DNA of 64,000 nt from Escherichia coli (GTDB lineage: Bacteria > Pseudomonadota > Gammaproteobacteria > Enterobacterales > Enterobacteriaceae). Below the pieces are notes generated by a model. It searched no databases, was not told the origin of the DNA, and was given only the letters and a program-made list of their open reading frames with translations. The translations under genes were made by a program, and so were the position numbers. Where the stretch lies: NCBI RefSeq assembly GCF_041886205.1, contig NZ_CP169029.1; one strand, written 5' to 3'. Of this stretch, positions 12,214 through 64,000 are shown piece after piece (position 1 is the first letter of the stretch; each line of letters starts with the position of its first letter).

Positions 12214-13332
12214 ATGCATAACCAGGCTCCAATTCAACGTAGAAAATCAACACGTATTTACGTTGGGAATGTGCCGATTGGCGATGGTGCTCCCATCGCC
12301 GTACAGTCCATGACCAATACGCGTACGACAGACGTCGAAGCAACGGTCAATCAAATCAAGGCGCTGGAACGCGTTGGCGCTGATATCGTCCGTGTCTCCG
12401 TACCGACGATGGACGCGGCAGAAGCGTTCAAACTCATCAAACAGCAGGTTAACGTGCCGCTGGTGGCTGACATCCACTTCGACTATCGCATTGCACTGAA
12501 AGTAGCGGAATACGGCGTCGATTGTCTGCGTATTAACCCTGGCAATATCGGTAATGAAGAGCGTATTCGCATGGTGGTTGACTGTGCGCGCGATAAAAAC
12601 ATTCCGATCCGTATTGGCGTTAACGCCGGATCGCTGGAAAAAGATCTGCAAGAAAAGTATGGCGAACCGACGCCGCAGGCGTTGCTGGAATCCGCCATGC
12701 GTCATGTTGATCATCTCGATCGCCTGAACTTCGATCAGTTCAAAGTCAGCGTGAAAGCGTCTGACGTCTTCCTCGCTGTTGAGTCTTATCGTTTGCTGGC
12801 AAAACAGATCGATCAGCCGTTGCATCTGGGGATCACCGAAGCCGGTGGCGCGCGCAGCGGGGCAGTAAAATCCGCCATTGGTTTAGGTCTGCTGCTGTCT
12901 GAAGGCATCGGCGACACGCTGCGCGTATCACTGGCGGCCGATCCGGTCGAAGAGATCAAAGTCGGTTTCGATATTTTGAAATCGCTTCGTATCCGTTCGC
13001 GAGGTATCAACTTCATCGCCTGTCCGACCTGTTCGCGTCAGGAGTTTGATGTTATCGGTACGGTTAACGCGCTGGAGCAACGCCTGGAAGATATCATCAC
13101 TCCGATGGACGTTTCGATTATCGGCTGCGTGGTGAATGGCCCAGGTGAGGCGCTGGTTTCTACACTCGGCGTCACCGGCGGCAACAAGAAAAGCGGCCTC
13201 TATGAAGATGGCGTGCGCAAAGACCGTCTGGACAACAACGATATGATCGACCAGCTGGAAGCACGCATTCGTGCGAAAGCCAGTCAGCTGGACGAAGCGC
13301 GTCGAATTGACGTTCAGCAGGTTGAAAAATAA
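12214..13332 (+). CDS. ispG: 4-hydroxy-3-methylbut-2-en-1-yl diphosphate synthase
   Basis: 372 aa; C-terminal cluster Cys (CPTCSRQ ... GCVVNGPGE). Confidence 0.95.
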
Positions 13333-13442
13333 TAACGTGATGGGAAGCGCCTCGCTTCCCGTGTATGATTGAACCCGCATGGCTCCCGAAACATTGAGGG
13401 AAGCGTTGAGGGTTCATTTTTATATTCAGAAAGAGAATAAAC

Positions 13443-14717
13443 GTGGCAAAAAACATTCAAGCCATTCGCGGCATGAACGATTACCTGCCTGGCGAAACGG
13501 CCATCTGGCAGCGCATTGAAGGCACACTGAAAAACGTGCTCGGCAGCTACGGTTACAGTGAAATCCGCTTGCCGATTGTAGAGCAGACCCCGCTATTCAA
13601 ACGTGCGATTGGTGAAGTCACCGACGTGGTTGAAAAAGAGATGTACACCTTTGAGGATCGCAATGGCGACAGCCTGACTCTGCGCCCTGAAGGGACGGCG
13701 GGCTGTGTACGCGCCGGCATCGAGCATGGTCTTCTGTACAATCAGGAACAGCGTCTGTGGTATATCGGGCCGATGTTCCGTCACGAGCGTCCGCAGAAAG
13801 GGCGTTATCGTCAGTTCCATCAGTTGGGCTGCGAAGTTTTCGGTCTGCAAGGTCCGGATATCGACGCTGAACTGATTATGCTCACTGTCCGCTGGTGGCG
13901 CGCGCTGGGTATTTCCGAGCACGTAACTCTTGAGCTGAACTCTATCGGTTCGCTGGAAGCACGCGCCAATTACCGCGATGCGCTGGTGGCATTCCTTGAG
14001 CAGCATAAAGAAAAGCTGGACGAAGACTGCAAACGCCGCATGTACACTAACCCGCTGCGCGTGCTGGATTCAAAAAATCCGGAAGTGCAGGCGCTTCTCA
14101 ACGATGCTCCGGCATTAGGCGATTATCTGGACGAGGAATCTCGTGAGCATTTTGCCGGTCTGTGCAAACTGCTGGAGAGCGCGGGGATCGCTTACACCGT
14201 CAACCAGCGTCTGGTGCGTGGTCTGGATTACTATAACCGTACCGTTTTCGAGTGGGTGACTAACAGCCTCGGTTCCCAGGGCACCGTGTGTGCAGGCGGT
14301 CGTTATGACGGTCTGGTGGAACAACTGGGCGGTCGTGCAACACCGGCTGTCGGTTTTGCGATGGGCCTCGAACGTCTTGTATTGTTAGTACAGGCCGTTA
14401 ATCCGGAATTTAAAGCCGATCCTGTTGTCGATATATACCTGGTGGCTTCAGGTGCTGATACACAATCTGCGGCTATGGCATTAGCTGAGCGTCTGCGTGA
14501 TGAATTACCGGGCGTGAAATTGATGACCAACCACGGCGGCGGCAACTTTAAGAAACAGTTTGCCCGTGCTGATAAATGGGGTGCCCGCGTTGCTGTGGTG
14601 CTGGGTGAGTCTGAAGTGGCTAACGGCACAGCAGTAGTGAAGGATTTGCGCTCTGGTGAGCAAACGGCAGTTGCGCAGGATAGCGTAGCCGCGCATTTGC
14701 GCACGTTACTGGGTTAA
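13443..14717 (+). CDS. hisS: histidine--tRNA ligase
   Basis: 424 aa, [18 protein letters not shown]...; class II aaRS motifs; apparent GTG start. Confidence 0.95.
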
Positions 14718-51815: not shown

Positions 51816-53831
51816 TTACAACACCTCGCGAACCGAGATCCCCAGACGCTGCATTCGTGACAGCAGCGTGGTGCGCTTCATCCCTAATCGTGTCGCCGCG
51901 CCACGGGGCCCGGCAACAATGCCATTGGTTTCTCGCAATACCTGAACAATGCGCTGACGTTCTTCTTCGTCATTCTCTGGCGTCGTCGGGTGCAGCAACT
52001 GCGCCATTGAACTGCGAAGCGCTGAATCTTCATTTAGCGTCGGCAGTAAACGGCTTTGTCGGACATTTAGATGTAAATTCAGACTGTTACCACGAGTCAA
52101 CAGTACCGCCCGCTCAATCACGTTTTCCAGCTCGCGCACGTTGCCCGGCCAATCCCACGACATCAACTGGCGTAGTGCCTCGGTCGGGATGGCGTCAATT
52201 GCGCGATTCATATGGCGCGCCATTTTTTGCGTGAAATGCTTTGCTAAAAGAGGGATATCTTCCGGACGGTCGCGTAGCGGCGGCAATTCCAGTGGGAAGA
52301 CATTCAGGCGATAAAAGAGATCGCTGCGAAACTGGCGATCTTCAACCATTTGCCACAAATCACGGTTGGTGGCGGCAATGACTCTGACATTCACCGGGAT
52401 CGTTCTACTCCCGCCGAGACGCTCAATCTCCCGTTCCTGCAATACGCGCAGCAGTTCAGGCTGAAGTTCTAACGGCAGATCGCCAATTTCATCGAGAAAC
52501 AACGTGCCGCCATCGGCAATTTCAAAACGACCACGATGGGTATTAATCGCACCAGTAAACGCCCCTTTGTCATGACCGAATAACTCACTTTCCAGAAGAC
52601 TGGCGGGGATGGCAGCGCAGTTGATTTTGACCAGCGGCTTGTCGTGTCGCGGGCTAAGTTGATGGATCGCTCTGGCGATCACCTCTTTGCCGGTTCCGGT
52701 TTCACCACAAATCAACACTGTACTGTCGCTCTTCGCCACAATATCTACCTGCTGGAGCAGGTCTTCCATTGCCTGGCTTTGATAGATAATGTCACCGACG
52801 CCCAGATTCGAAAGGAGCTGCTCGCTAAGCTGGTGGTTTTCTTGCTGCAAACTTTCCTGCAAATCGGTCATGCTACGCCAGGCATCGGCATTGCCAACGG
52901 CAATAGCGATGCGATCGGCTATGTGTTGTAGTAGCTGGCAGTTTTCCTCACTAAAGAGAGTGGAAGAGGTATGCGCCAGCAACAATGCACCCGGTGTATG
53001 GTTGCCAAAGGTAAGCGGTATCAGGAGCGCAGATTCGCAGCCGTTAGATGCAAGTAAGTGTAATAACGGGTCGCGTTGCCAGAGAAACAGATCGTCTGCA
53101 CGGTGCGTCAAGGTCGGTTGTCGGGTTTGTAGCGTTTGTGTCAGCAATACACTTTCGCCAGGCATACAGCGTGGCAGACACGCACAATGTGAGGCAGAAA
53201 GATCGCTGCACCACAGGCTGAACTTATCGTTCTTTCGATGATCTCCCAGTACCATACTGACTGAAGCCAGACCGAAAAAATGATGGATCTCACGGGCGAC
53301 GTCAGCGATCAGATCGTCGAGATCAAGATGTGACAGCACTGCATTAGTAATATCAACCAGTACCCGATGATGATCGCGATCTTTCTCCAGCAAACGCAGC
53401 GCCACCTGCTGTTCTTCATCATTGAGCCATGATTGCAGAACCGGGGTGATTATCCGCGCCAGCCAGTTAAACAGTGTGCAATCTTGGGGAGTAAAACGGC
53501 TGCCGTGGGTACGAATAAAGCGTAGCTCCGCCATTCCACTACTGCCGAGAAGGACGGCGTGACGCGAATAATCGACCATCTCGCCCTGATACTCTGTTGT
53601 TGCCGTCACATCGCTGCCATCATCATGGTAGCGGTAATAGAAGTTGCTTTTGAGAACATGCAGTTCAATAAGTTGTACCGGGCTGAACGGCGGCGGCAGC
53701 GGGATGAAGGCGCGTAATAAAGACGCCTTACTGTGTTTCTGCGCTAACCGCTCCGCGAGCATTCCGTTTACCGCTTCAATTGTTATTCCTTGCGGCGGGG
53801 CAAACATCGCCTCGTCTGACATAGCCATCAA
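51816..53831 (-). CDS. hyfR: sigma-54-dependent transcriptional activator of the hyf operon
   Basis: 671 aa (670 if the second Met is used); GAF-like N-domain, AAA+ sigma-54 interaction domain ([14 protein letters not shown]), C-terminal HTH. Confidence 0.9.
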
Positions 53832-53857
53832 CAGTCCTTATTAATGAGAAATCCTTC

Positions 53858-54271
53858 TCACGTAATTTTTCTGGCCATCAGATAGATGGCCGGTTCCTGC
53901 ACAATTTCATCCAACAGATGAATGAATTGAATGCTACGCGCCTGCCACACAGACGTCGCGTCATCCGCCAGTGGCGCGAATGCCCGGGTCAACAGGGCGG
54001 TGTGGCTGGCGTCAATAACAATCTCACCAAAAGTCATCACCCCCAGCATCTTACGTCGGGCTTGCTCCTCTTCGACCAGTGCAAGCCAATCTTCGTATTC
54101 CGTCAGTGGGCAGGGGAAGGCGACATTCAGACAATCAATCACGCCAACGTGATGACCGATAGCCAGCGAGTAATACATTACCTGAGAGCTGTGTTCCGGC
54201 ATCTCGTCGCTACTGGCGACAAACTTTTTTCGCAGCGTCCAGAAAACAATTTCCCCGCACTCTTCAGTCAT
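53858..54271 (-). CDS. hyfJ: hydrogenase-4 maturation/assembly protein (HycH-like)
   Basis: 137 aa from [17 protein letters not shown]; the ORF track extends 21 codons upstream. Confidence 0.8.
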
Positions 54272-55021
54272 GTAACCCCCGGAGTACGCGAAAGAGTTGC
54301 TGAACGATACTATTGAGACGTGGATCGTCGGCATCGCGCAACCAGGTGTTAACCCGATTTCCTGTAGGATCGTCGCTTAAATGGCGCAGGAGCCGATCGC
54401 AAATTTCTCGCCCCTGACGATAGCCCGCCAGCCGCCGCGCTTCTCGCTCAATGGCGATACGCTGTGATGGCGGGATCTGCGGCCACAACGGTTGCATAGT
54501 CACCCCGGTGGGATCGCGATAATCCACCGCGTGAATCTTCTGTTGCAGCAAACCGAGCGCCACGGCGAAACCGTGAATGGTGGCGGCCGGTGTTGGCGGG
54601 CAGCCGGGGATCCAAACATCAATGGGGACAATGGTGTCGCTGCCGCCCCAGACGCTGTAGAGATCGTGGAAAATCCGCCGCCGGCACCGCACGCGCCGTA
54701 GGAAACACAGATTTTATGATCGGGGGCAGACTCATACGCCCGAAGTGCAGGCATACGCATCGCCCGGGTGAGTGCGCCAGTAAATAACAAAATATCGGCG
54801 TGACGCGGTGATGAAACAACCTTAATGCCAAAACGTTCTGCGTCGAATACTGGTGTAATGGCGGCAAAAATTTCGATTTCACAGGCGTTGCAGCCACCGC
54901 AATCGACGCGATAAACGTAGGCTGAGCGACGGATATCCTGTAGCAAATGCCGCTTCATCTTTTGCGTTTGCTCGTCCAGCGTGATGGGCTGGCTGACATA
55001 TTGCGTAAGCACTGGACTCAT
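54264..55021 (-). pseudogene. hyfI: hydrogenase-4 small subunit (NuoB-like), disrupted by a -1 frameshift near 54675
   Basis: Two ORFs (54500..55021 and 54264..54692) in different frames. The first reads intact through ...[14 protein letters not shown] and the second resumes at [27 protein letters not shown]; 116 + 136 = 252 aa, matching the NuoB motif spacing (CANGGG-YYHY-SYSVV); locus length 758 bp instead of 759. Confidence 0.75.
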
Positions 55022-55563
55022 AGCTGCTCCTTAGCCACCAGCGGTACATCTGTATCGTCGTTGAGCAGCGTCGCGCGTTGTTTGCACTCCGGGCAGACGC
55101 TCGCTTGCGCCCATAACATTTCGCGGTTTTGTGGCGCATTTTGTTGCTGTGCCAACAATTCAGCAGCCAGTGCGACGGTTTTTTGCGGGGCAAACGGGCG
55201 TTCGCAACGGCTGCAACGTTGTAGATGGAACGTCGCGCGGGTATAGAGATCGGCTTTATTGGTGACGGTCAGTTCAAAGTTATTGGTAAGCTGGATGGCT
55301 CTGGTCGGGCACACTTCTTCACAACGTCCGCAGTAAATACAACGCCCCAGATAGAGCTGCCAGGTGCGCGAATTTTGCTGGTCGTCGGTCTGGATAGTCA
55401 GCGCATTTGCCGGACAAGCACAGGCGCAGGCACCGCAGGCAATACATTGGCTGGGCATCAGGTCCGGTTTCCCGCGAAAGCCTGGGCTGACCTCCAGTGG
55501 CGCGAAGGGATATTTCACCGTCGCGGTTCCGGCGCGCATAATAGTTTTCAGTAACTTCAGCAT
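55018..55563 (-). CDS. hyfH: hydrogenase-4 ferredoxin-like subunit (2x 4Fe-4S)
   Basis: 181 aa; [12 protein letters not shown] and [12 protein letters not shown] motifs. Confidence 0.9.
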
Positions 55564-55572
55564 CTTCTGTCC

Positions 55573-57288
55573 TTACTTCAGCGGCGAACGGTTACGATCA
55601 ATGCCGTAGCGTTCGATCTCTTTATACGGCACGGTTTTTGACTGGCGCTTGCGCACATCTACCAGCGTCACACGGTCGGTACAGGAGTAGCAGGGATCAA
55701 GGCTACCGATAATCAGCGGTGCGTCAGAAACGGTATTGCCGCGCAGCATGTAACGCAACACCGGCCAGTTGGCGTAGGTGGCGGCACGACAGCGCCAGCG
55801 GAACAATTTTTGGTTATCACCGAGCATGCTCCAGTGCACGTCTTCGCCGCGTGGCGCTTCAACAAAGCCCAGCGCGAATGCGTGAGGTTTATAGCTAAAG
55901 CCTTCGGTCAGCAGTGGGGTATCCGGCATGTTGTCGAGGGCAAATTCCAGCATTGCCAGCGAATCAAACGTCTCTTTGACACGGACCATCATGCGGGAGA
56001 AGACATCGCCGCCGGTAAAGGTAAACAGTGTTTTTGGAATATTGCCGTAGTCGGCGTAGGGGTGATCAAAGCGCAAATCACGGGCAAAACCACTGCCGCG
56101 GATCAGCGGCCCTACAGGGCTATAATCACGGGCGATTTGTCGGTCGAGAATGCCAATGCCCTGAGTGCGTTGTTCCATATTCGGCGTAGCAAGCAGCATC
56201 TCTACCAGCTCCGACACGTCGGCGCGCATCTCGCGCACCAGTTTCAGCGTTTGCAGACGTTGCTCTTTGAGAATATCGCGGCGAACACCACCAATCAGAT
56301 TCAGACCGTAGGTTTTACGCGACCCGATCAGCAATTCCGCCATCGTCATCGACTTTTCCCGCACGCGGAAAAATTGCATAAAGCCGGTATCAAAACCAAC
56401 GAAATGGCAGGAGAGGCCAAGGTTAAGCAAATGACTGTGTAGCCGTTCGACTTCCAGCAGAATCGAGCGAATAGTATGTGCTCGTTGCGGCACCTCAATC
56501 CCCAGTGCATTTTCAACCGAGTTGGTATAGGCCACACTGTGGGCAAAACCGCAAATCCCACACACGCGGTCCGATAAGAAGGTCACTTCGTTGTAGCCCA
56601 TCCGCGTTTCTGCCAGTTTCTCCATGCCGCGATGGACATAAAACAGGCGGTAATCAGCATCGACAATTTGCTCGCCATTCACAAACAAGCGGAAGTGACC
56701 CGGTTCATCGGAGGTGATATGCAGCGGGCCGACAGGGATCACCCGCGCATCGCTGTTGCCCTCATTGATAAACGCATACGTTTCGGAATCTGTCGTCGGT
56801 TCAGGGCGCAGTCGATAATCCATCGCATCTTTGCGCAGCGGATGCATATCTTCCGGCCAGTCATCGGGCAACACCAGGCGACGCTGATCCGGCAGGCCAA
56901 CCGGAATCAGCCCGTACATATCGCGAATTTCTCGCTCGCCCCAGACCGCGGCAGGGACGCGCAGTGTGACTGACGGAAACTCCCGACTGTCGGCATCGAC
57001 CAGTGCCTTAACCACGATCCAGCATTTTTCGGCCCCTTCCATAGAAAGGGCATAATAAACGGCGTAATGACCGTTAAGTGTCCGCTCGTCGTTGCCAAAC
57101 AGGACCGGAAGCCAGCCATCATGTTGATAATAAAGATAATGTACAACGTCAGGCAGCAGATTGATTTTCACCGTAATGGTGACCTGTTCAGGCGTTTGTC
57201 GCTCTTCATCCAGCACCGCGCCGGGGAACTGCGTTTTCAGGGCGGCGAGAATCGCTTCGCCACGATTTGACGATGAATTAACGTTCAC
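55573..57288 (-). CDS. hyfG: hydrogenase-4 large (NiFe) subunit
   Basis: About 571 aa from the GTG at 57288 (RBS GAGAAA); NiFe-hydrogenase large-subunit motifs ([12 protein letters not shown]-terminal, [10 protein letters not shown]-terminal); exact start uncertain. Confidence 0.85.
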
Positions 57289-58858
57289 TGTGTTTCTCCG
57301 AAACAGATGCGGTGCCTGAAGGCAAAAAATCATGCCAGGTGCTACGTTGTGCAGGCAGGTCGTGCGTCCCTGAGAGGACTATAGTGGAAGCGCCCGCCAG
57401 GATCCTGATGACAGGTTGTGGAATATGCGTTCCCATCGCCAGCATCATGACCAGCAGAATCACCATTGGCGAGGTGGTCAACCAGCCGAGATCACCCCGG
57501 TTAACGGCCTGCGGCGGTTTCGCCATTAACACCCGCGCAGCCATCCGTACCAGGCCCGCCAGCACCAGCGTTAACAGCAATAACAGCATGACGATAATCA
57601 GCAGGTGATTACGTGCCAGTCCGGCGGTAACGGTCATAAATTCGCTAAGAAAAATGTTGAAGGGCGGCATCCCGGCCAGCGCCAGCGCACCGCCGCCAAA
57701 CAGCACGGCGGTAAATGGCATGATTTTGAGCATCCCGCAGACGACGTTGAGATCGCGCGTGCCGTACTTGAGCAGTACATTGCCGGAACCGCAGAACAGC
57801 AGCGTTTTTGCCAGACTGTGGTTTAAGGTGTGCAGCAGCGCGGCAAAAATTCCCAGCGGCCCGCCAATGCCTAGCGCCACCGCGACCAGTCCCATGTTCT
57901 CCACGCTGGAGTACGCCAGCAGACGCTTAATGTCCCGCTGTACCAGAATGAAAAATGCCGCCACGGCAACCGACAACATGCCGAAGATGAGCAACAACCG
58001 GTTGGGGAAATCGCTGCCGATGGCCTGGCAGATAATGATGTAATAGCGAATCATCACCAACAGCGCGCAGTTCAGCAATACGGCGGAGAGCAGGGCGCTG
58101 ACCGGACTCGGCGCTTCACTGTGAGCATCCGGCAGCCAGGCGTGCATAGGAAATAGCCCGGTTTTGGTACCAAAGCCAATTAGCACAAACACAAAGGCCA
58201 ATAGCATTAATGTTGGGTCAAGCAAGGACTATTGCTTAAGAACCTCGCTCCAGAATATCGCCATTTCTGCCTGCGGCATAACGCTGGCGGCGTTGGCGTA
58301 TACCAGCACGGTACCGAACAGACCAAAAGCGACGCCAACAGTACAAATAATGATGTACTTCCATGCAGCTTCCAGCGATGAACGCTGACCGTAAATGCCT
58401 ACCAGAAACGCCGAGCTTAAGGTGGTGGCTTCGATCGCCGCCCACATCACAATCAGGTTATTGCTGGTAACAACCAGCAGCATGGTGAACAAAAACAGAT
58501 GGAAGAAACCGTAGTAATCGCACAGCGTAACGGGTGAAAGCTCGCCGTGTGCCACTTCATGACGCATGTAGCCAATCGAGTAAACACCGGTGAGAAAGCC
58601 AATCACACCAAGAATGGCGAGGAACAAACCGCCCAGACCATCAATATGAAGCCACAGTCCCGCAGCGAATATTTCTCCCGCACCAGCGGCAGTTTGAACC
58701 AACCAGAGTGCCAGAATCAGCAGCAGTGTGATCCCTAAGCTATGTAATACTGTCACCGCGCGAGTCGCAGAGTGCCCCCGTTTCCGGCAGGCAAAACAGA
58801 GCAGCGAAAAAAGCAGCGGCGTGAGCAGGAGTAAAGCGAACATCACAGAATAACTCAT
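57278..58858 (-). pseudogene. hyfF: hydrogenase-4 membrane subunit (NuoL/M/N-like), interrupted by an in-frame amber codon (TAG at 58229-58231)
   Basis: ORFs 58229..58858 (209 aa) and 57278..58225 (315 aa) are in the same frame, separated by TAG plus one codon; 209 + 1 + 1 + 315 = 526 codons, i.e. one gene with a nonsense mutation. Confidence 0.75.
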
Positions 58859-58862
58859 CTCA

Positions 58863-59513
58863 TTATCCCTTCAGCGCGGTCAAGTTGTTCACGTCCAGCG
58901 TGCCGTGGGTACGCCATATTTTTCTTGCCAGTAACACCATCACAATGACGGCGAAGATGGCGTCGGTAGCGATACCTATTTCCACCAGTTCCGGTGCTCG
59001 CCAGGCAAGAAGCGCCAGCACCAGATGGGAGCCGTTTTCCATCAGGCAGTAACCAAAAATTTGCCGCAGGATATTGCGCTGGCTGACAATGCACAGCAGG
59101 CCAAGCAGAAAATGACCTAACGCTACCGCCAGCGCCGGTTTCAGCCCGGTAGCCATCGGTAGCTTCATGGGCTGAACGACAAATGCGCAAAGCAGGACAA
59201 TTAACGCCGCGAGCAGTGCCATCATTGCCGGACCGAATAACGCTTTTTCCGGGATGTTCTGGGGAATATTTCGTGCAGCGTAAGTCATGATTAACGGTAC
59301 CAGCAGCACTTTGGTGATAAAGGCGCTGGCGGACCAGATCAGCAGTTGCTCTGCGGCGAACAGGCACGAGAGAGTGGCGAAAATAGACACCAGCACCAGC
59401 GACTGGCAGGCGTAAAATCCGCATGACAGGCGATAGCTTTTGACGCTAATCACAAACAGCGATGTCAGCATCATCAGTCCCGCCAGATTATTTACGATCA
59501 TAGAACCGGTCAT
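58863..59513 (-). CDS. hyfE: hydrogenase-4 membrane subunit
   Basis: 216-aa hydrophobic protein in the conserved position. Confidence 0.9.
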
Positions 59514-59524
59514 TCATCATCTCC

Positions 59525-60963
59525 TTACTGCAACCAGGTCGCGGCGATTACGCTGGAAATCAGCGACATCACAATCAGTACAATCAACACCAGGCGCATT
59601 GACCCTGGCAGCGGTGCGGCATCGGCGACGGCCTCGCTCGGTTTGCCAGGCACAACGCGACCAAACCAGCGAATAAACCAGGCGAAACTGGCGACCGATT
59701 CAATCATCAGCAGAATCATGGCGGGCAGCAGGATCCAGTACTCCACTGACAACGCAAAACCGGCAGCAAACAGCGGGAATTTACTGAAGAAGCCGTTGAA
59801 CGGCGGCACACCGGTAATCGCCAGCGCTGCCACGCAGAAACCCACGCCTGGCAACGGCAGGGTGTGCAATACGCCACGCAGACGCGGCAACAAGCGCGTG
59901 CCGCAGCTGTAACTCAGCGCACCTGCTACAAGGAAAAACAGGCTTTTAGCGAACGCGTGGTTGACGATGTAGGCGATGCTACCCTCCAGCGCCAGCCGCG
60001 AGCCGAAGATGGAGAGCGACAAACCGAAGAACATCCAGCCAAGTTGAGTGATGGTCGACCAGGCCAGCAACCGCTTCATATCCTGCTGTGGCAAATACAT
60101 CAGAAAGCCATAAAGAATGGTGACCAGGGCCATGACCATGCCAACGCCGCCAATCACATGCGGGATATTGCCACCGTCGATAATGGCGCGGGCAAAAATG
60201 TAAACGCCCACTTTCACCATCGATGCGGCGTGGAGATAGGCGCTGATCGGTGTTGGCGCTTCCATTGCATCCGGTAGCCACGCTTGCATCGGTAGCTGGG
60301 CCGATTTCCCCCACGCGGCAAACAGGATGCCGCCATAAACCAGATAACGTGCGTCGCCGTGTAACTCGCTCATCGCGCTAAGCGCAAACGTTCCGGTCTG
60401 CAAAAACAGCGTGGCGGCGGCAAGATACAACCCCAACGAGCCGATATGAGTGATAAGTAACGCTTTTAGTGCTGAACGCTGTGCTTTATCGCTCTGGTAA
60501 TAACTGATCAACGCCCAGGAGCAGCCGCCCGTAATTTCAAAAAACAACAACTGACCGAGCAGCGTCGAGGAGAGTACCAGTCCCGCCATCGCGCCGATAA
60601 ACAACAGCAAAAATGCGTAATAACGATTCGTGCCGTTATGCGGGTGTTCGCGATTTTTATCCGTCAGATAACCCGTGGAGTAGATCGTGACCAGCAAACC
60701 GAGAAACACCACCACAAACAGAATCAGCGTACTCACGCGATCAATGAGCAGGCCAAACAACGCCACATCCCCCACGTTGACCAACGTCAACGTGACGGCA
60801 ACTTTATCGGCCTGATAAAACGCGGAGATCAGCGACAACATGCACAGCGTGGTCAGTGCGGCGAACAAAACCCCCATTCGGCGGCCCGACGTTGTGGCGA
60901 AAACGAAACGACCAGTGCGCCGATAAAAGGCAGCATTAACGTCGTCAGAGCAAGATTTTCCAT
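59525..60963 (-). pseudogene. hyfD: hydrogenase-4 membrane subunit (NuoL/M-like), -1 frameshift in a C5 run (plus strand 60871-60875)
   Basis: True start ATG at 60963 with RBS TAAGGAG reads MENLALTTLMLPFIGALVVSFSPQRRAAEWG and then hits TGA. The 450-aa ORF continues in the -1 frame from VLFAALTT; 31 + 448 = 479 aa; locus length 1439 bp is not a multiple of 3. Confidence 0.75.
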
Positions 60964-60979
60964 ATTCCGTCAGTGCTCC

Positions 60980-61927
60980 TTACAGACCGGTTAACCAGAA
61001 GACCCATGCAAGCGCAGCAAGGCTGAAGCCAAGCCAGGTCACATGGTGAATGAGTAAAAAACGCCCGCGTGCCAGCGTGTTTTCTGCGATTGAGGCCAGT
61101 ACAAAAATCAGCAAAACCTTGAGCAGCGTAACGACAAGTGAAGTCAGCAGGCAGGCGAGAGAAAGTTCTTGCGCGCGCCCAAAGGGCAGAAACAGGGCCA
61201 CAAACAGTGCTGCCATCACGACCTGTTTCAGCCCCAGCCCCCATTTCGCTAGCGCCAGCCCGGCACCGGAATATTCGGTCAGCGGGCCTTCCTGTAATTC
61301 CTGTTCTGCTTCAGCAACATCAAAGGGAATTTTTCCCATCTCAATGAAGCAGGCAAAACCACAGGCCAGTAACGCCAGTACGGTGGTTAGCGGCGAGTTC
61401 CAGCCCGTTGCCAGCGTATTGCTGATCATCTCGATATGCGTGGAACCTGCTATCAGCGCCAATACCAGCAGTGAGAGAATGAGCATGGGTTCGACCAGAA
61501 TGCCGAGCGTCAACTCGCGACTGGCACCGACTCCCGCAAACGGGCTTCCGGTATCCAGCCCGGAAAGAGCAAAGAAAAAACGAAACAGGGCAAGAAGATA
61601 GATAAGGGTGATCAGATCGCCGCCGCCCGCAAAAGGGGAAACGGTAATAAAAAGTGGTAGGGCCATCGCCAGCACCAGCATGCTGCTGATTAATACCCAC
61701 GGCATCAGGCGGAACATCAGACCTGAAGATATAGGCGCAACTTCCTGGCGTTTAAACAGTTTGTGGATATCGCGATAATCCTGCCAGATCCCCGGCCCGC
61801 GGCGGGAGTGCATACGCGCGCGTATCTGCCGGGAAATACCCGTAAAAAGCGGGGTTAGCAGCAGCAGAATCACGGCCTGTGCTAACGCAAAAATGACCAG
61901 ATATCCGTCGCAAAGAGTTTGTCTCAT
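60980..61927 (-). CDS. hyfC: hydrogenase-4 membrane subunit (NuoH-like)
   Basis: 315 aa from MRQTLCDGYLVIFALAQAV; the ORF-track start is 7 codons upstream. Confidence 0.9.
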   Translation of the reverse strand: MRQTLCDGYLVIFALAQAVILLLLTPLFTGISRQIRARMHSRRGPGIWQDYRDIHKLFKRQEVAPISSGLMFRLMPWVLISSMLVLAMALPLFITVSPFAGGGDLITLIYLLALFRFFFALSGLDTGSPFAGVGASRELTLGILVEPMLILSLLVLALIAGSTHIEMISNTLATGWNSPLTTVLALLACGFACFIEMGKIPFDVAEAEQELQEGPLTEYSGAGLALAKWGLGLKQVVMAALFVALFLPFGRAQELSLACLLTSLVVTLLKVLLIFVLASIAENTLARGRFLLIHHVTWLGFSLAALAWVFWLTGL

Positions 61928-61937
61928 GGTGATTTCC

Positions 61938-63955
61938 TTAGACGGCAATAGCGATTAGCAGCACAACCAGTGCGGCGACCACATACAGGCAATAGAGACG
62001 AAAGTCGCCGCTTTGCAGATGCTGTATTTCTTTGGCCAGCCGTTGGGTGGCGCTCACGATGGGGCGGATCACCCGCTCATCCCAGAAGGGTTCTGTGCTC
62101 TGAGCCCTGGCGGTGACGTGCGCAAGACCTTTATTTAGCCTCAGCGTAGGGTCGAGCTGTTGTCGTAGACGAAATAGCGCAGAAAAGACCACACGCAGCG
62201 GCTGCATCACGCCATTGCCTGACGGGGCCATCGCATTTTCCCAGCCGTAGCCGCATGCCCAGGCATCTCCTGTGCGACGAAACGCTGCGCGGCGCGAACG
62301 ACACCACAGCCAGTAAAGGCCAGGCAGCAAAGGCATCGCCAGTAGTAACAGCAACAGTAATGAGGGTGTGACCCGTGTATGAAACGTGCCGGGTACAAGT
62401 GCTATTCCGCTGGCGACAGTGACGGGAGGGGTATTGGTAAACGCATGGGCAATGTGCATTATCTTCGGTGCCAGCCAACTGGCACTGAGCGCAATTAATA
62501 CGCAGAGTGCCGCGAGCAGTAGCATGGCGACGATCATTGTATTTGGCACTTCCTGTGCCTCTTCAGCGTGTGTGCTGCGCGGCGCACCACAGAAAGTAAT
62601 ACCGTAGATTTTGACGAAGCACATTACTGCCAGCCCACCAGTGACTGCCAGCATTACCATAGCAATAGGACCCGCAAGTTGTAGCGCTACGGCTTCCACA
62701 CGACTTAGTGAGAACAGCAACTGCCAGGTGTACCATTCGCTGATAAAACCATTCAGCGGAGGAATGGCTGATATCGCGAGGCAACCAATCAGGCATGCTG
62801 CGGCTGTCCACGGCATCCGTTTCGCCAGTGCCCCCATTTTTTCCATGTCGTGGGTATGCAAACGCGAAATAATCGCACCCGCGCCGAGAAATAGCAGCCC
62901 TTTGAACAGCGCATGGTTGAGCAGATGAAACAGTGCGCCGAGCAGTCCAACCACGGTGAGCAGCGGGTCGTGCAGTGACAGACCGTCCATCGCCACACCG
63001 ACCGCCAGCAAAATAATGCCGACGTTTTCGACGGTACTCCAGGCCAGCAGCCGTTTGATATCCTGTTCCGCCAGTGCATACAGCACGCCCAGGAGCGCGG
63101 AGATTGCGCCGATCGCCATCACCAGAGTGCCCCACCACAGAGGCAAACCCGTTTGCGCCAGCAGATCCATCGCTACTTTCAGGATGCCGAAAATACCGAT
63201 TTTGACCATTACGCCAGACATCAACGCCGAAGCGTGCGATGGTGCGGCAGGGTGAGCGCGCGGCAACCAGCTGTGCAACGGCATCATCCCGGCTTTCGCG
63301 CCAAAACCGAAAAAGGCCAGCAGAAACACCGCCGACGCCAGCCCCGGAGAAAGTGAAAGCGTGCGAAACTGGCAAAATCGAGGCTGCCGCTTTCGCGCCC
63401 CATCAGCAAGAAGGCGATCATAATCAGCACCGATCCGGCGTGGGCGATAAAAAAGTAGAGCATGCCAGCGTTGATCGACGTTTTATCCTGCCTGGCAATG
63501 ACCAGAAACCAGGAAGACAGCGACATCATTTCAAACAGCACGATGAACCAAAAAGCGTTGTCCATCACCAGCAGGGCAACCATCGATGCGATGAAAAGAT
63601 TCATAAAGAAGCCCATCGCCGCCGCGCCTTTGCCCTCGTATTCGCGCATATAAGTCAATGAATAGAGCGAACAAACCACCACCAGCAAGGAGATAACCAG
63701 CACCATAAATGCCGAGAGGCTATCCATTCGCAGGGTTAAATCGGCAAAGTCAAAAGGGGTGGCAAAATGGGCGACTAAAGTTACACCAGCATGTAATTGC
63801 GTAATTCCGCTGATGATGCCAATCACGCCGCCCACCAGCGATGTGATGCCGGAAAGCTTAATAGCCAGTCTGTCCAGACCGAGTAAAAACAGCGAAGCCA
63901 GACTGGCAAACAGATAGAGGATCAGCGACCAGGTTAATAATTGCAGGGCATCCAT
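61938..63955 (-). pseudogene. hyfB: hydrogenase-4 membrane subunit (NuoL-like), -1 frameshift around 63360-63370
   Basis: ORFs 63284..63955 (real through ...GSLDFASF) and 61938..63329 (resuming RTLSLSPGLAS-VFLLAFFGFGAKAGMMPLHSWLP) are in different frames; 197 + 475 = 672 codons with one shared nucleotide. Confidence 0.75.
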
Positions 63956-64000
63956 TAGTGTTGCTCCTGAGTGAGGGAAAGGGGATCCTCCCCGCCATTG
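63955..64000 (-). CDS. hyfA: 3' end of the upstream hyf gene (presumably hyfA), partial
   Basis: An open frame enters from the window edge and ends at a TAA overlapping the hyfB ATG (TAATG), with AGGAG serving as the hyfB RBS; identity inferred from operon order only. Confidence 0.35.
   Translation of the reverse strand, partial: NGGEDPLSLTQEQH

Follow-up and report, generated by a model that had tools for sequence, protein, structure and literature searches.

Described relatives of the gene discussed here include HycC, the membrane subunit of the formate hydrogenlyase-1 complex (FHL-1) of E. coli, and the antiporter-like subunits NuoL, NuoM and NuoN of complex I. HycC is a homologue of HyfB and is essential, as FHL-1 is inactive in its absence (PMC7384014). 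In Pectobacterium, deletion of hyfB-F leaves approximately 5% of hydrogen production, whereas deletion of hyfDEF alone has no discernible effect (PMC7384014). In E. coli K-12, the intact hyf operon is poorly expressed, and no hydrogenase 4 (Hyd-4) activity was detected even when the operon was expressed from the T5 or hyc promoters (PMC7654741); the phrase 'a silent operon' belongs to the work of Self et al. 2004, as cited in that paper. The genes hyfABCDEFGHIJ are missing from phylogroup B2 (PMC2617782), and a large survey scores Hyf simply as present outside of B2 (PMC7314097). A search of openly accessible papers returned no paper on a hyfB frameshift or on the pseudogenisation of hyf in hyf-bearing lineages.

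The window analysed here is a stretch of E. coli DNA of 64,000 bases, and its hyfB gene is interrupted by the loss of a single nucleotide. With a probability of about 0.93, this hyfB is a true inherited pseudogene and part of the erosion of the silent hyfABCDEFGHIJR-focB operon, which encodes hydrogenase 4/formate hydrogenlyase-2 (FHL-2). The hyf operon occupies positions 53228-64000 of the window (minus strand), where it comprises the 3' end of hyfA and the genes up to hyfR, and is 98.7% identical to that of K-12 MG1655. Within it, hyfB is located between hyfA and hyfC, an arrangement that is colinear with K-12 (hyfB, b2482) and with strain wlxctx60. The gene and its reading frames are as follows:

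61938 to 63955, minus strand: hyfB pseudogene (hydrogenase 4/FHL-2 membrane subunit B, NuoL/HycC-like antiporter subunit), assigned by alignment to K-12, PGAP annotation of matching genomes and the profile score of the restored open reading frame (ORF)
63365 to 63366, minus strand: site of the deletion, one C of CC lost (TTTCC/GCA to TTTC/GCA), located by pairwise alignment and codon view
63284 to 63955, minus strand: frame A product, 197 native HyfB residues followed by 26 out-of-frame residues (ARFHFLRGWRRRCFCWPFSVLARKPG), ending at the TGA at 63286-63284
61938 to 63365, minus strand: frame B, the remaining 475 HyfB codons (R198 to V672) with the conserved GFGAKAGMMPLHSWLP helix, delimited by the codon view

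A preliminary description of this DNA had named the gene hyfB and had postulated the loss of one nucleotide after about codon 197, with two frames sharing one base; it had proposed an alignment to K-12 hyfB as a check. This alignment bears out all three points. The window gene comprises 2018 nt and the K-12 gene 2019 nt, and in a global alignment both are 98.7% identical at the nucleotide level, with 27 substitutions and exactly one 1-nt gap; a single 1-nt gap is also found against the intact hyfB genes of O111:H8 and O157:H7. K-12 reads GCC AGT TTC CGC ACG CTT and the window reads GCC AGT TTC GCA CGC TT, which identifies the lost base as one C of the CC at nt 591/592 of K-12 hyfB, a pair that spans Phe197 and Arg198 (TTC/CGC). 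On the plus strand, the window has gtgcGaaact at this site, whereas K-12 has gtgcGGaaact. The surviving C at position 63365 belongs both to the TTC of frame A and to the CGC of frame B, and because these codons share a single C, a ribosome would need to shift by -1 to stay in the HyfB frame. The preliminary description had suspected the string gcgaaact near 63363-63370; the string occupies exactly these positions, and the deletion at 63365 lies inside it. Its reading of the homologous sequence, in which frame A ends with ...GSLDFASF and frame B resumes with RTLSLSPGLAS...GFGAKAGMMPLHSWLP, agrees with the codon view as well.

Two overlapping minus-strand ORFs are listed for this region, one from 63955 to 63284 (223 amino acids) and one from 63329 to 61938 (463 amino acids, starting at an internal GTG). 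The C-terminal end of the 223-amino acid ORF reads ...GSLDFASFARFHFLRGW... up to its stop codon. Frame B is open upstream to position 63482, continues after the junction with RTLSLSPGLASAVFLLAFFGFGAKAGMMPLHSWLP... and reaches the normal hyfB stop codon and thus the native C-terminus. The stop codon of frame A overlaps with an ATG of frame B (ATGA, 63284-63287; Met224/Met225), which is probably coincidental, as the same ATG ATG codons are present in intact hyfB. Re-insertion of the missing C reopens a HyfB ORF of 672 amino acids with 10 substitutions among its 672 residues compared to K-12, which argues that the lesion is not a chance arrangement of frames.

Translation of the gene leaves the HyfB frame at codon 198, just before the conserved lysine-bearing helix (GFGAKAG...HSWLP), and ends 26 codons later at codon 224. 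The encoded stub of 223 amino acids is short of about 70% of the antiporter-like subunit. The HyfB equivalog NCBIfam NF005086 has a curated cut-off of 667 bits; the restored 672-amino acid protein scores 968 bits and the C-terminal part alone 710 bits, whereas the encoded 223-amino acid product reaches 245 bits, which is below the cut-off and short of a full-length match. The restored protein aligns to HycC (PDB 7Z0S chain C) over residues 3-604 with an E value of 1e-102, and the alignment runs straight across the junction and covers the TM7 motif directly after the lesion. Since the frame matches both HycC and the family profile across the junction, the uninterrupted state of hyfB is ancestral. 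The homologue encoded in the window is truncated before the TM7 motif, in contrast to HycC, which is intact and essential for FHL-1 (PMC7384014). The window gene is thus hyfB by descent and synteny, but it does not code for a HyfB protein. Missing from the stub are the helix that bears the conserved lysine (GFGAKAG) and every helix that follows it in the NuoL/HycC-type antiporter fold; judged from this protein family, such a stub would be non-functional, and we infer a loss of hyfB function.

The hyfB lesion is accompanied by three further disrupted genes of the same operon, which were absent from the preliminary description, as were the wide inherited spread of the hyfB allele and its existing public annotation. 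Genes with the following coordinates were compared:

60980 to 61927, minus strand: hyfC, intact, 315 amino acids
59525 to 60963, minus strand: hyfD pseudogene, 1-nt deletion (G6 to G5) at 60871-60875, codon ~31, stop at codon 37; alignment and PGAP 'frameshifted' (wlxctx60, G3/10)
57278 to 58858, minus strand: hyfF pseudogene, Ser210 to stop (S210Ter), TCG to TAG at 58231-58229; alignment and PGAP 'internal stop'
55573 to 57288, minus strand: hyfG, intact, ancestral form of 571 amino acids with 48 nt (within ~56077-56124) that are absent from K-12
54264 to 55021, minus strand: hyfI pseudogene (hydrogenase small subunit), T lost after codon 116 (GGT ATT to GGA TT) between 54675 and 54674; alignment and PGAP 'frameshifted'

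In the window, hyfC, hyfE, hyfG, hyfH and hyfJ are intact. PGAP marks the same four genes (hyfB, hyfD, hyfF and hyfI) as pseudogenes in strains wlxctx60 and G3/10. As hyfD, hyfF and hyfI are disrupted in addition to hyfB, no Hyd-4 complex would be able to form in the window strain. Based on the genetics of FHL-1 and of the Pectobacterium genes (PMC7384014), the lesions in hyfB and hyfI would be the ones that destroy the core of the complex, and those in hyfD and hyfF might have been tolerated on their own.

The preliminary description had left open whether the interruption is a read error or a real lesion. Single-base indels are the commonest type of assembly error, and a G homopolymer is the site of the hyfD lesion in this operon, so that a sequencing or assembly error in a genome that truly carries CC and an intact hyfB would be conceivable; its chance is, however, close to nil. 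The base missing from hyfB belongs to a run of two nucleotides and not to a homopolymer, and the identical allele is found in at least 1,254 independently assembled genomes out of the 4,292 hyf-bearing complete E. coli genomes (roughly 29%); it is linked to the same flanking SNPs in all nine carriers compared. The number of carriers was obtained with a query of 87 bp centred on the deletion, of which only matches without differences were counted, and is thus a lower bound. The other ~3,040 hyf-bearing genomes (~71%) align over 88 bp, i.e., they contain the extra base and are intact at this site. The carriers are of Asian, European and American origin, and their sources include humans, pigs, cattle, chickens, gulls, a bear, mussels, seawater and soil. 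Judged from serotypes such as O121:H19 and O103, they presumably belong largely to phylogroup B1. No hyf genes are present in about 1,130 complete E. coli genomes, which is consistent with the published finding that phylogroup B2 lacks hyfABCDEFGHIJ (PMC2617782). In all eight carriers inspected (LHM10-1, PT62, O121 RM8352, wlxctx60, G3/10, O177:H21, APEC20/16 and O21:H9 ST536), the PGAP annotation lists hyfB as a pseudogene of 2018 nt with the label 'frameshifted'. The RefSeq pseudogenes of wlxctx60, G3/10, O121 RM8352, O177:H21 and APEC20/16 have the same deletion and the same local haplotype as the window; nothing substantive differs at hyfB, and it is the accompanying hyf lesions that vary between strains. 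The window and the corresponding region of wlxctx60 are colinear over 64,000 bases and 99.98% identical, with 10 mismatches and no gaps, and the four hyf genes are the only pseudogenes among the ~50 coding sequences of the wlxctx60 region. The ~46 other genes of the 64 kb are intact and free of indels, and the G5 allele of hyfD is itself common to at least 986 genomes. The independently assembled genomes, together with the PGAP annotation, thus settle the question in favour of a real lesion.

A real lesion could still be compatible with a functional HyfB if the frame were restored during expression, if the protein were made in two pieces or if the deletion were reversible. Programmed -1 ribosomal frameshifting or transcriptional slippage would restore the full-length protein, with tRNA-Phe moving from UUC to UUU on G_UUU_C and translation continuing at CGC. 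On chemical grounds, tRNA-Phe could make such a slip on U_UUC and thereby recreate the exact native ...SF-RTL... junction, and in all carriers examined the frame after the deletion has stayed open; as in the dnaX-type programmed -1 sites of E. coli, the two frames overlap and are offset by -1. However, none of the dnaX-type signals, i.e., slippery heptamer, upstream Shine-Dalgarno (SD) element, downstream stem-loop and conservation, is found at the hyfB site. Both frames are open together over 199 nt (63482-63284), and no X_XXY_YYZ heptamer occurs in this stretch; the 50 nt upstream of the site contain no SD-like GGAG, GAGG or AGGA. The 125 nt downstream have a minimum free energy of -43.9 kcal/mol compared to a shuffle mean of -48.7 kcal/mol (z = +1.3), and 186 of 200 shuffled sequences fold at least as well; an Rfam scan gave no relevant match. 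At the site itself, no run exceeds T3, which is too short for slippage of RNA polymerase. Moreover, the shift is not conserved among orthologues, as ~71% of the hyf-bearing E. coli genomes have a continuous hyfB ORF, and a rescued HyfB would find no complex to join, since HyfD, HyfF and the essential small subunit HyfI are disrupted as well. Programmed recoding is therefore very improbable. A lesser possibility, also unlikely, is that tRNA-Phe on rare occasions slips spontaneously by -1 on U_UUC and yields traces of exact wild-type HyfB. A split gene, in which the N-terminal stub and a re-initiated C-terminal fragment starting at Met224 (ATGA at 63287-63284) or at the GTG at 63329 act as a two-piece HyfB, merits just as little credence. 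The ATGA overlap of the frame A stop and the frame B ATG has a geometry that could support termination-reinitiation, and the C-terminal part alone exceeds the cut-off of the family profile; but neither piece would have residues 198-223 in native form or the native TM7 segment. In the stub, 26 junk residues take the place of the helix with the conserved GFGAKAG lysine, and the Met224 product lacks this helix altogether. In addition, no SD-like sequence precedes the ATG at 63287 or the GTG at 63329, and the rest of the operon is broken. Phase variation, in which the deletion would act as a reversible contingency switch at a mutable repeat, is implausible. Indels in short repeats can revert, and the lesion of hyfD affects a run of this kind (G6/G5); a CC, however, offers far too little repeat for slippage at an appreciable rate, and the carriers are grouped by their haplotype and do not show on and off states in a scattered pattern.

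The distribution of the allele fits an inherited pseudogene. The variable sites of hyfB were tabulated for nine carriers and two intact alleles. All nine carriers share the block 534T-Δ591-633T-759C, which is absent as a block from both intact alleles; 633T is found in neither of the two. The nine carrier genomes examined also have an identical site string, GTTTCGCA. The carrier alleles differ at up to 31 sites, and their flanking segments are mosaic: the hyfB of O177:H21 has an O111:H8-like haplotype after nt ~900 and is only 8 sites away from the intact hyfB of O111:H8, and the hyfB of O21:H9 has differences of its own at nt 168-372 and 3' of nt 830. The shared local block with its mosaic flanks indicates, as the simplest reading of these alleles, a single deletion event and later recombination of the segment into different backgrounds. 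One C would thus have been lost once from the CC at codons 197/198, and the allele would then have been inherited and moved by homologous recombination. Recurrent mutation at a hotspot, which the divergence of up to 31 sites between carrier alleles and the closeness of O177:H21 to an intact allele might suggest, was rejected in view of the block shared by all nine carriers. Two observations speak against the pseudogene reading. The frame 3' of the deletion has acquired no further stop codons or indels in any of the nine carriers. Pairwise dN/dS values are ~0.1-0.25 for all pairs and no higher for carriers than for intact alleles, but the counts are tiny and the power is low, since most of this divergence probably arose before the deletion or came in through recombination.

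The hyf lesions occur in different combinations across strains:

O21:H9 ST536: lesions in hyfB and hyfI
O177:H21: lesions in hyfB and hyfF, and a shortened, frameshifted hyfD
APEC20/16: lesions in hyfB, hyfD, hyfG, hyfI and hyfR
LHM10-1: an additional stop codon in hyfC
O111:H8: lesion in hyfI only
O157:H7 PV15-279: no hyf lesion

The exact alleles of the window were counted in at least 1,254 (hyfB), 986 (hyfD), 679 (hyfI) and 289 (hyfF) complete E. coli genomes; these numbers are lower bounds, are sensitive to nearby SNPs and do not resolve an order of the lesions. The hyfI allele is also found in O111:H8, in which hyfB is intact, and the lesions in hyfB and hyfI are thus partly independent in their distribution. 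In O177:H21 and APEC20/16, hyfD comprises only 1230 nt (locus ~12946-14175), which is ~210 nt less than normal, and is frameshifted in addition. hyfG and hyfR of APEC20/16 are frameshifted as well, and operon decay is further along in some lineages. Such a patchwork of lineage-specific lesions that is confined to one operon is the expected signature of neutral decay after a loss of function. Relaxed selection is a plausible cause of this decay, since even the intact operon of K-12 shows poor expression and confers no Hyd-4 activity from the hyc or T5 promoters (PMC7654741).

On its own, the hyfB lesion is a routine pseudogene and carries little weight. It is also already known, as it is recorded in the public PGAP annotation of over a thousand RefSeq genomes, and it is mechanistically trivial. 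For practical purposes, Hyd-4/FHL-2 should be regarded as null in the window strain and in its clade, and pan-genome or metabolic models that count hyf as present in carrier strains are misleading.

The operon of the window differs from that of K-12 also in hyfG, which encodes a protein of 571 amino acids in the window and of 555 amino acids in K-12 and O111:H8. The extra 48 nt of the window gene are bounded by the direct repeat GCCCGTGATT, and the short form lacks 16 conserved residues (386-401) through a deletion between the GCCCGTGATT repeats. The long HyfG of the window aligns without gaps to HycE (7Z0S chain E) through the extra segment, which identifies the long form as ancestral. In an evenly stepped sample of ranked matches, each form was present in about half of the hyf-bearing genomes. 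The polymorphism is mentioned nowhere in the openly searchable Hyd-4 papers that were covered by our search. Because of this deletion, K-12 does not offer a clean functional hyf reference, and the loss of the 16 residues may contribute to the fact that Hyd-4 activity has never been observed in K-12. A still wider reading, which we consider tentative and on balance unlikely, is a species-wide, lineage-by-lineage erosion of Hyd-4, comprising the deletion in B2, a large clade (the window included) with frameshifts in hyfB, in hyfI or in both, and the 16-residue deletion of HyfG in K-12 and about half of the hyf-bearing strains, with only some lineages (e.g., O157:H7) retaining an intact operon of ancestral type. 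If it were true, the 25-year puzzle of a 'silent' or inactive Hyd-4 in K-12 would come down to a defective reference allele rather than to missing expression conditions, and presence/absence surveys that score Hyf as present outside of B2 would overstate its functional distribution. In O157:H7 PV15-279 (NZ_AP018488.1, 3388529-3407663), all hyf genes are intact and hyfG has the long ancestral form; for an E. coli FHL-2 that is potentially functional, O157:H7 may serve as a reference better than K-12 does.
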